Below are positions 5,111 to 5,170 of a stretch of 64,000 nucleotides of DNA, piece by piece. This DNA comes from Escherichia coli (GTDB taxonomy: Bacteria; Pseudomonadota; Gammaproteobacteria; Enterobacterales; Enterobacteriaceae). Position 1 is the stretch's first letter. Each line of letters begins with the position of its first letter. The translations under genes and the position numbers were made by a program. The notes under the pieces were generated by a model that was not told the origin of the DNA, searched no databases, and worked only from the letters and a program-made list of their open reading frames with translations. The stretch lies in NCBI RefSeq assembly GCF_016026235.1, contig NZ_CP065613.1; one strand, given 5' to 3'.

Positions 5111-5170
5111 AAGTGTCCCAATCATGCCCCAAAATGCCCCACAACAAATATTTTTGCCCCATGCATGCCC
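5111..5170. repeat. five direct repeats of TG(C/T)CCCA in attL arm (candidate Int arm-type sites)
   Basis: GTGTCCCAA, ATGCCCCA x3, TTGCCCCA at about 10-20 bp spacing; same motif twice near attR. Confidence 0.45.

Follow-up and report, generated by a model that had tools for sequence, protein, structure and literature searches.

What are the short direct repeats of the sequence TGYCCCA that lie just inside both ends of the prophage on contig NZ_CP065613.1 of Escherichia coli (assembly GCF_016026235.1)? The stretch analysed, 64,000 nucleotides in length and referred to as the window, comprises aspS, yecD, a 48-kb prophage inserted in yecE, the remainder of yecE and yecN, as in an E. coli/Shigella-type chromosome, and the PGAP record examined carries no annotated feature over the repeats. 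The original prediction took the repeats for candidate arm-type sites of a lambda-type integrase, with five same-orientation copies 115-185 bp inside the left junction and two copies about 65-85 bp inside the right junction (52769-52788). Both groups were found at these places, all on the plus strand (Table 1), and the assignment was supported by comparison with related phages, through a conserved layout and a PF12167 arm domain, the binding being predicted from these. The heterobivalent tyrosine integrase (Int) of the prophage, which is of the phiP27/Rac IntR type ('IntBPP-1'), probably (about 0.8) uses the TGYCCCA copies as its arm-type binding sites. The int-distal and int-proximal arms are designated P and P', respectively; the int-proximal junction, named attR in the original prediction, is attL (B-O-P') by the lambda/phiP27 convention.

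The five left copies (5114-5172) lie 118-176 bp inside the left junction, with their starts 118-170 bp past the core, and the two right copies (52770-52787) lie 65-82 bp inside the right junction, with their starts 82 and 71 bp before the core. The start-to-start spacings were 11, 10, 20 and 11 bp for the left copies and 11 bp for the right ones. TGYCCCA as such is not enriched in the window (19 occurrences against 20.2 expected); five copies in 60 bp were reached in none of 300 first-order Markov simulations (largest number, 3), and the left repeat block was found to be the strongest 7-mer cluster in the window. Similarly, TGYCCCA-N4-TGYCCCA with at most one mismatch occurs three times, against 0.11 expected, and all three occurrences fall in the att arms. 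Both attP arms thus carry the repeated motif some way from the core, and it is unrelated to the core half-sites GTCATG/CGTGAT. The right copies are contained in the last codons of int (tat gtc cca atg atg tcc cat, encoding YVPMMSH), whose stop codon occupies 52831-52833. A further TGCCCCA is read on the opposite strand of the M-G-H codons of Int (ATGGGGCAT), at 51400-51406 on the minus strand and about 130 bp upstream of the P' pair; it was found in several lineages and is absent from phiP27, which uses GGC, and is probably a coding coincidence.

Relatives of the integrase were collected by tblastn of a phage collection, which gave 156 records with 60-80% identical integrases as well as more distant ones, and both arms were read in representative lineages only. 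The layout is kept in six other lineages with Int identities of 42-100%, namely phiP27/PhiR49_2, Stx1_499, phi330, TL-2011c, Salmonella FSL SP-016 and K-12 Rac, the last being used in place of vB_EcoS-666R9, whose record does not include the far prophage end. In the common arrangement, the int-proximal arm holds a single pair with a spacing of 11 bp and the distal arm holds one to three pairs or triplets, in the same orientation in all of these lineages, and cores, neighbouring genes and flanking sequence vary among the lineages that share it. The repeats were thus present at the att arms of these related lineages, as the original prediction had demanded. PhiR49_2, with an intact Int of 437 amino acids, has the same 5+2 repeats as the window; phiP27 has the int tail and P' arm in common with the window and the same five-copy block at its other end, with copy 3 degenerate; P-EibC also carries the repeats. 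Stx1_499 (Int 75%, integrated in yecE) presents GTGTCCCATACATGCCCCATAG in P' and GTGTCCCATTGATGCCCCATAA in P, phi330 (Int 71%, with the different core GTCACG-TTACGCG-CGTGAC) presents GTGTCCCATGTATGCCCCATAA in P' and three contiguous copies in P, TL-2011c (Int 69%) presents GTGCCCCAGACGTGCCCCAAAG in P' and four copies in P with spacings of 11, 20 and 11 bp, and Salmonella FSL SP-016 (Int 64%) presents ATGCCCCATCACTGCCCCAAAG in P' and TTGCCCCATCCATGCCCCACAC in P. In K-12 Rac (IntR, 42%; ttcA, 26-bp core), the P' pair TTTGCCCCCAATTTGCCCCATTT lies after the intR stop codon and the P arm carries TTTGCCCCT, TTTGCCCCT, TTTGCCCCA and TTTGCCACC with spacings of 11, 19 and 11 bp. The P' pair starts at -82/-71 relative to the core in the window and phiP27, at -72/-61 in phi330 and at -65/-54 in Rac, and the first P site starts at +108 to +118 across lineages. 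The second P-arm pair, which follows after a step of 19-20 bp, is also found in TL-2011c and K-12 Rac.

In each arm, no part is better conserved than the repeats. Mean pairwise identity was 0.80 in the motif columns of the P-arm alignment (8 arms) against 0.52 in the other columns, and 0.90 against 0.53 in the P'-arm alignment (7 arms); the best 7-column windows of both alignments are the repeats themselves, with P-arm copy 2 in first place in the P arm. The arm domain is likewise the best conserved domain of Int, with a mean pairwise identity of 82.6% in the non-Rac lineages, followed by the catalytic domain (72%), the core-binding domain (61%) and the C-terminal tail that overlaps the P' pair (36%). 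The integrases found by a scan of IMG/VR with phiP27 Int were all 95-100% identical, most being truncated at the prophage boundary or fused with yecE, and no intact attP was gained among these matches; the P' pair is kept in 79 of 80 near-identical integrases. P' copy 2 occurs there in two alleles, with ATGTCCCA and ATGCCCCA endings (TGTCCCA and TGCCCCA in 41 and 38 of the 80, respectively); the exchange at the degenerate motif position replaces Ser by Pro. Because of these Ser/Pro alleles, and because the int-proximal pair of Rac is non-coding, lying beyond the intR stop codon, it is the DNA and not the protein that is under constraint at the P' pair. The Pseudomonas phage vB_PaS_IME307 (Int 30%) has the same layout with another motif, (A/C)TGGTACA, of which the first pair lies inside the int tail (PF12167-type) and the second about 180 bp downstream (2050-2256); these pairs are its probable arm-type sites, with the attP core expected between them. 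As the layout is combined with a different motif in this distant integrase, the motif follows the integrase and not the host. The sites are therefore conserved together with the Int arm domain across differing cores and flanks, and the motif changes in a distant relative. The Citrobacter phage phiNP (28% identity) was uninformative, as an ATPase gene follows straight after int, with no attP downstream and no shared repeat.

The integrase itself has the organization expected of an enzyme that binds two kinds of sites. In phiP27 Int, taken as the intact proxy, Arm-DNA-bind_2 (PF12167) was found at residues 7-70 (E 1e-23), apart from the core-binding and the phage-integrase catalytic domains, so that a separate N-terminal arm-binding domain stands beside those two; phmmer matches among PDB sequences were confined to the catalytic region. 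Such proteins form the 'IntBPP-1' subgroup of Smyshlyaev et al. 2021 (PMC8138268), which includes the Gifsy-2 and Stx (Shiga toxin)-phage integrases, whose DUF3596 arm-binding domain is made of three strands and a helix and whose members were called putative integrases. The combination of a DUF3596/PF12167 arm domain with a tyrosine recombinase catalytic domain places the present enzyme in this subgroup, and the integrase of a Gifsy-2-like Salmonella phage is 64% identical.

Table 1. Positions of the repeats and associated features in the window.
Feature	Position	Strand	Sequence and remarks
Candidate arm-type site, distal (P) arm copy 1	5114-5120	+	TGTCCCA; conserved in PhiR49_2, P-EibC, phiP27, Stx1_499 and phi330
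Candidate arm-type site, P arm copy 2	5125-5131	+	TGCCCCA; TGCCCC columns invariant in 8/8 aligned P arms
Candidate arm-type site, P arm copy 3	5135-5141	+	TGCCCCA; degenerate in phiP27 (CGTCCCG); third contiguous copy in phi330
Candidate arm-type site, P arm copy 4	5155-5161	+	TGCCCCA; opens second pair
Candidate arm-type site, P arm copy 5	5166-5172	+	TGCCCCA
Candidate arm-type site, int-proximal (P') arm copy 1	52770-52776	+	TGTCCCA; within int tail codons
Candidate arm-type site, P' arm copy 2	52781-52787	+	TGTCCCA; within int tail codons
Core identity, int-distal junction in yecE	4986-4996	+	TTAACTGCGTG, 11 bp; shared by both junctions
Core identity, int-proximal junction	52852-52862	+	TTAACTGCGTG, 11 bp; shared by both junctions
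Putative C' half-site	4993-4998	+	CGTGAT; by sequence inspection
Putative phage half-site	52846-52851	+	GTCATG; imperfect inverted repeat with CGTGAT
IHF-consensus site between core and P-arm repeats	5055-5067	+	AATCAAAGCGTTG; exact match to WATCAANNNNTTR; putative function
IHF-like site between P' pair and core	52820-52832	+	AATCAGTGAGTTA; one mismatch; putative, by consensus match
Candidate Xis (RDF) sites	5078-5084 and 5099-5105	+	TCATATG x2; putative
Excisionase gene, DUF1233	49961-50197	+	PF06806, E 1e-32; 99% identical to phiP27 excisionase
Integrase gene, 5' part	50253-51412	+	386 codons, cut before catalytic Tyr; 96% identical to intact 437-aa PhiR49_2 Int
IS3-family insertion sequence	51413-52676	+	1264 bp; target duplication AAG; transposase matches NF033516
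Integrase gene, 3' part	52680-52833	+	Catalytic Tyr (NVYGAWM) and tail overlapping P' pair
IHF, integration host factor; Xis, excisionase; RDF, recombination directionality factor; IS, insertion sequence.

Other putative elements were noted in the arms. The IHF consensus WATCAANNNNTTR has 7 matches in the window against 2.5 expected, one of them between the core and the P-arm repeats, and the TCA columns of the IHF-like site of the P' arm are invariant in 7/7 aligned P' arms. On the circular phage genome, attP would read, in order, int 3' end, P' pair, IHF-like site, core, a conserved block next to the core, IHF site, Xis-like repeats and the five P sites. The N-terminal Arm-DNA-bind_2 domain of each Int protomer would dock on one TGYCCCA site, the C-terminal domains of these protomers would reach the core through bends induced by IHF, and the Int tetramer would exchange strands with the yecE attB at the core; which protein binds the repeats, what IHF and Xis do and where strands are exchanged are all predictions. 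Integration and excision would probably use different subsets of sites, and for excision the DUF1233 excisionase would have to be bound beside the P sites. The minimum, kept in every lineage, would be a pair in each arm, which gives each of the four protomers one site, and the extra copies in the window (3+2) are lineage-specific. The conserved block next to the core in the distal arm (5003-5040, ATTTTTAAAAATCACTAAAGAACGCCCAAGAGC) is kept in phiP27, Stx1_499, phi330, SP-016 and TL-2011c despite their differing cores and is the second-best conserved stretch of the P arm; a core-proximal site for Int, IHF or Xis is one possible role.

Binding of the repeats by a protein other than Int was considered in two forms. 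In one, the repeats are sites of the DUF1233 RDF (Xis), polymerising head-to-tail like lambda Xis or 186 Apl, and their direct arrangement 10-11 bp apart would suit such a function, RDF sites being typically helically phased direct repeats according to PMC7498355. Xis homologues accompany Int in all lineages examined (31-99% identity), so that co-inheritance cannot separate the two proteins, but there is no change in the motif even where Xis identity falls to 31-50%. Moreover, the phased repeats occupy the two arms, with one invariable pair beside int, whereas the characterised RDF sites, such as those of lambda, L5 and P2, lie in one arm. A separate direct-repeat block between the IHF site and the P sites does vary by lineage, with TCATATG x2 in the window, a TTCGAYGAA-type block in phi330 and Stx1_499, and TTAACGAAC x2 in SP-016, and phi330 and Stx1_499 have an identical Xis and an identical block; as it changes in step with Xis, this block would be a better candidate for the Xis sites than TGYCCCA. 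In a published electrophoretic mobility shift assay, Rac XisR shifted the fragment AttR and not AttM (PMC4632033); the published primers map AttM to the far end of Rac (2169-2459), including all four Rac P-arm repeats, which is a weak negative, coming from one gel and with AttR also containing these repeats. Taken together, this makes binding by the excisionase improbable. In the same work, XisR bound the fragment with core and host flank (2290-2583) and not the whole phage arm up to the core (2169-2459); this is unusual, since an excisionase should have its sites within the arm. In the other form, the repeats would be bound by a different factor, such as a host nucleoid or phage protein, or would contribute nothing but DNA shape to the intasome, with no sequence-specific contacts to Int. 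The shortness of the motif leaves room for this; to our knowledge, however, TGYCCCA matches no IHF or Fis consensus (the IHF pattern alone being tested here), the 30% identical Pseudomonas integrase has a different motif in the same layout, and Int carries a domain with exactly arm-binding as its known role (PF12167), so that this explanation, too, is judged quite improbable.

The surroundings of the left block offer two explanations in which the repeats have no part in recombination. Downstream of the repeats lies a dinI-like gene (5259-5507), and the region 5195-5258 before it contains its -35 hexamer TTGACA and the LexA-box-like palindromes CACTGTTTATCCATACAGT and TACTGTATAAAAACACAGT; copy 5 ends 22 bp upstream of that hexamer. 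The left cluster could accordingly be a regulatory element (an activator or repressor site, or UP-like) of the LexA-controlled dinI promoter, with the right copies as a by-product of int coding, and phi330, Stx1_499 and SP-016 likewise have a dinI or msgA gene after the arm. When the left arm and dinI were compared by megablast with 50,697 phage records, however, the match in 96 of the 98 records found started at 5191-5194, just past the last repeat and at the dinI -35, with other integrases there, and 4997-5190 was common only to PhiR49_2 and P-EibC among the 98. About 95 phages thus share the dinI promoter and gene without the repeats, whereas in phiP27 the repeat block is followed by unrelated sequence with no dinI, and TL-2011c and Rac also carry the repeats without dinI. 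Because the homology with dinI-carrying phages stops just past the repeats and phiP27 has repeats without dinI, the repeats travel with int/att, and comparison of the sequences assigns them to the int/att module and not to the dinI promoter. The non-coding Rac P' pair and the Int tails, just 36% identical outside the motif, further argue against a by-product of coding. The dinI element was rejected on the homology break after the repeats and on phiP27, and its probability is very low. The remaining explanation, that the repeats are the coding sequence of a minus-strand open reading frame (ORF) with repeated W-G residues, draws on the annotation of such an ORF ('L58') across the arm of phiP27 and on a 58-codon minus-strand ORF in the window (4986-5162). 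The frame over the repeats varies, however, and a copy-number difference of 11 bp between phi330 and Stx1_499 shifts it; SP-016 has no long open frame, Rac has no L58-type ORF, and PGAP annotates nothing. With no reading frame conserved across lineages, the ORF was rejected and is scarcely credible. Arm-type sites of Int thus remain the preferred reading of the repeats.

The state of the prophage determines what these sites can still do. The same 11 bp as the core identity of the window are annotated as att in the yecE-integrating Stx2e phage phiP27, and 239 of 5426 complete E. coli genomes carry the same yecE junction plus arm. The core looks like a C-O-C' arrangement, GTCATG-TTAACTG-CGTGAT; in phi330 the inverted repeat is perfect (GTCACG-N7-CGTGAC). 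The deposited phi330 genome (PV189401.1) contains a 20-bp core, CCTGTCACGTTACGCGCGTG, twice in tandem at 2526-2565, and looks like a prophage-derived assembly that keeps the attL and attR copies and not a true attP. The excisionase and integrase genes both read towards the right-hand junction, and 19 bp separate the int stop codon from the core. The IS separates int codons 1-386 from the last 51 codons, which hold the catalytic tyrosine; its limits were taken from the junction sequences and the 3-bp duplication, and no IS-end inverted repeats of at least 14 bp were found in an inverted-repeat search. The 5' part encodes the arm-binding and core-binding domains and most of the catalytic domain, as assigned from the phiP27 homologue. 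Since the IS splits int before the catalytic tyrosine, the repeats are intact but unusable by the resident enzyme. The interrupted ORF (50253-51425) keeps the same domains without the catalytic tyrosine, and its product, if expressed, could sit on the arm sites but not recombine. The IS3-family element is present twice in the last 5 kb of the prophage (48223-49041 and 51413-52676), the first copy lying upstream of the xis region, with orfB products one residue apart, and xis and most of int would be lost if the two copies recombined. Close to the prophage end, at 6108-7859, lies a gene for an IpaH-family type III secretion system E3 ubiquitin-ligase effector (NF046045, 563 bits, above cut-off), and the prophage is of the effector-carrying, Shigella/enteroinvasive E. 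coli type.

The importance of the assignment lies in the role of arm-type sites, which set the directionality and efficiency of integration and excision, and in the range of the integrase family, which spans K-12 Rac, Gifsy-2-like Salmonella phages, many yecE-using Stx1/Stx2-converting phages and ipaH-carrying prophage remnants. With the layout, prophage ends of this family can be delimited exactly, as one junction is followed inwards by a pair at 55-85 bp and the other by pairs at 110-180 bp, and motif and layout together offer a concrete and cheap target for gel-shift and attP mutagenesis. If Int occupied the last P sites, about 20 bp would separate it from the dinI -35 downstream. It is possible, though doubtful, that a single arm-site code (TGYCCCA pairs 11 bp apart) is common to all enterobacterial PF12167 integrases regardless of core specificity, with cross-talk of arms between co-resident prophages. 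In that case, the Int of another yecE phage, for example a superinfecting Stx phage, could excise or mobilise the IS-crippled ipaH prophage, and such mobilisation in trans is conceivable because the att sites are intact although the integrase is broken. Integrases with other cores, or the Tyr-less Int, could also bind to the arms, so that recombination and the neighbouring dinI promoter would be blocked or modulated. Whether prophages with a shared arm code and differing cores interfere with or help each other is therefore a testable question. No description of arm-type sites, and no data on N-domain binding or on a need for the sites in recombination, were found for the Rac/phiP27 PF12167 integrase family in the searchable literature, which did not cover subscription journals, so that an earlier description is possible. 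The element is of a textbook kind, that of lambda-type arm sites, which as far as found had not been defined before in the PF12167 integrase family.

Among the closest known systems is phage lambda, its arm-type sites P1, P2 and P'1-P'3 being bound by the N-terminal domain of Int through the motif C/AAGTCACTAT. Both systems have a heterobivalent integrase with int transcribed in the direction of att, adjoining direct repeats with a spacing of about one helical turn at 50-85 bp from the core in the int-proximal arm, further sites 110-180 bp out in the other arm, IHF-consensus sites between core and arm sites, a probable RDF block beside the distal sites and an arm motif unrelated to the core. 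The present system differs in its motif (TGYCCCA), in its arm domain (PF12167, not the lambda-type Pfam family), in the single orientation of all copies, whereas P2 of lambda is inverted, in the number of sites (2+2 to 2+5 in PF12167 lineages versus 3+2) and in the position of the P' pair within the int coding sequence in most lineages; the sites of the window prophage are, moreover, known from sequence alone. In mycobacteriophage L5, the arm sites form the pairs P1-P2, P4-P5 and P6-P7, different pairs being used for integration and excision. Adjacent pairs in both arms are a feature shared with the sites described here, but L5 has an unrelated integrase lineage, host and motif, and mIHF as its host factor. 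For the IntS system of KplE1/HK620, likewise an E. coli prophage system, Int arm-type and TorI (RDF) sites were mapped on the att arms, overlapping a promoter, which shows that arm sites can have regulatory consequences (PMC2951348). It differs in having 'TAAA' as the conserved core of its P' sites and int oriented with its promoter in attL, and its sites were shown experimentally. According to the study of Gifsy-1 Xis, which concerns a different RDF family, Xis sites were the only ones characterised so far. A further related system is that of Rac IntR/XisR, for which only the 26-bp core and the binding of XisR to the attR fragment were defined, without a description of arm-type sites (PMC4632033). 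It differs from the present prophage in core and target gene (ttcA), but it has an integrase of the same family (42%) and an Xis of the same family, and the TTTGCCCC pair/gap/pair found here is present in both Rac arms.
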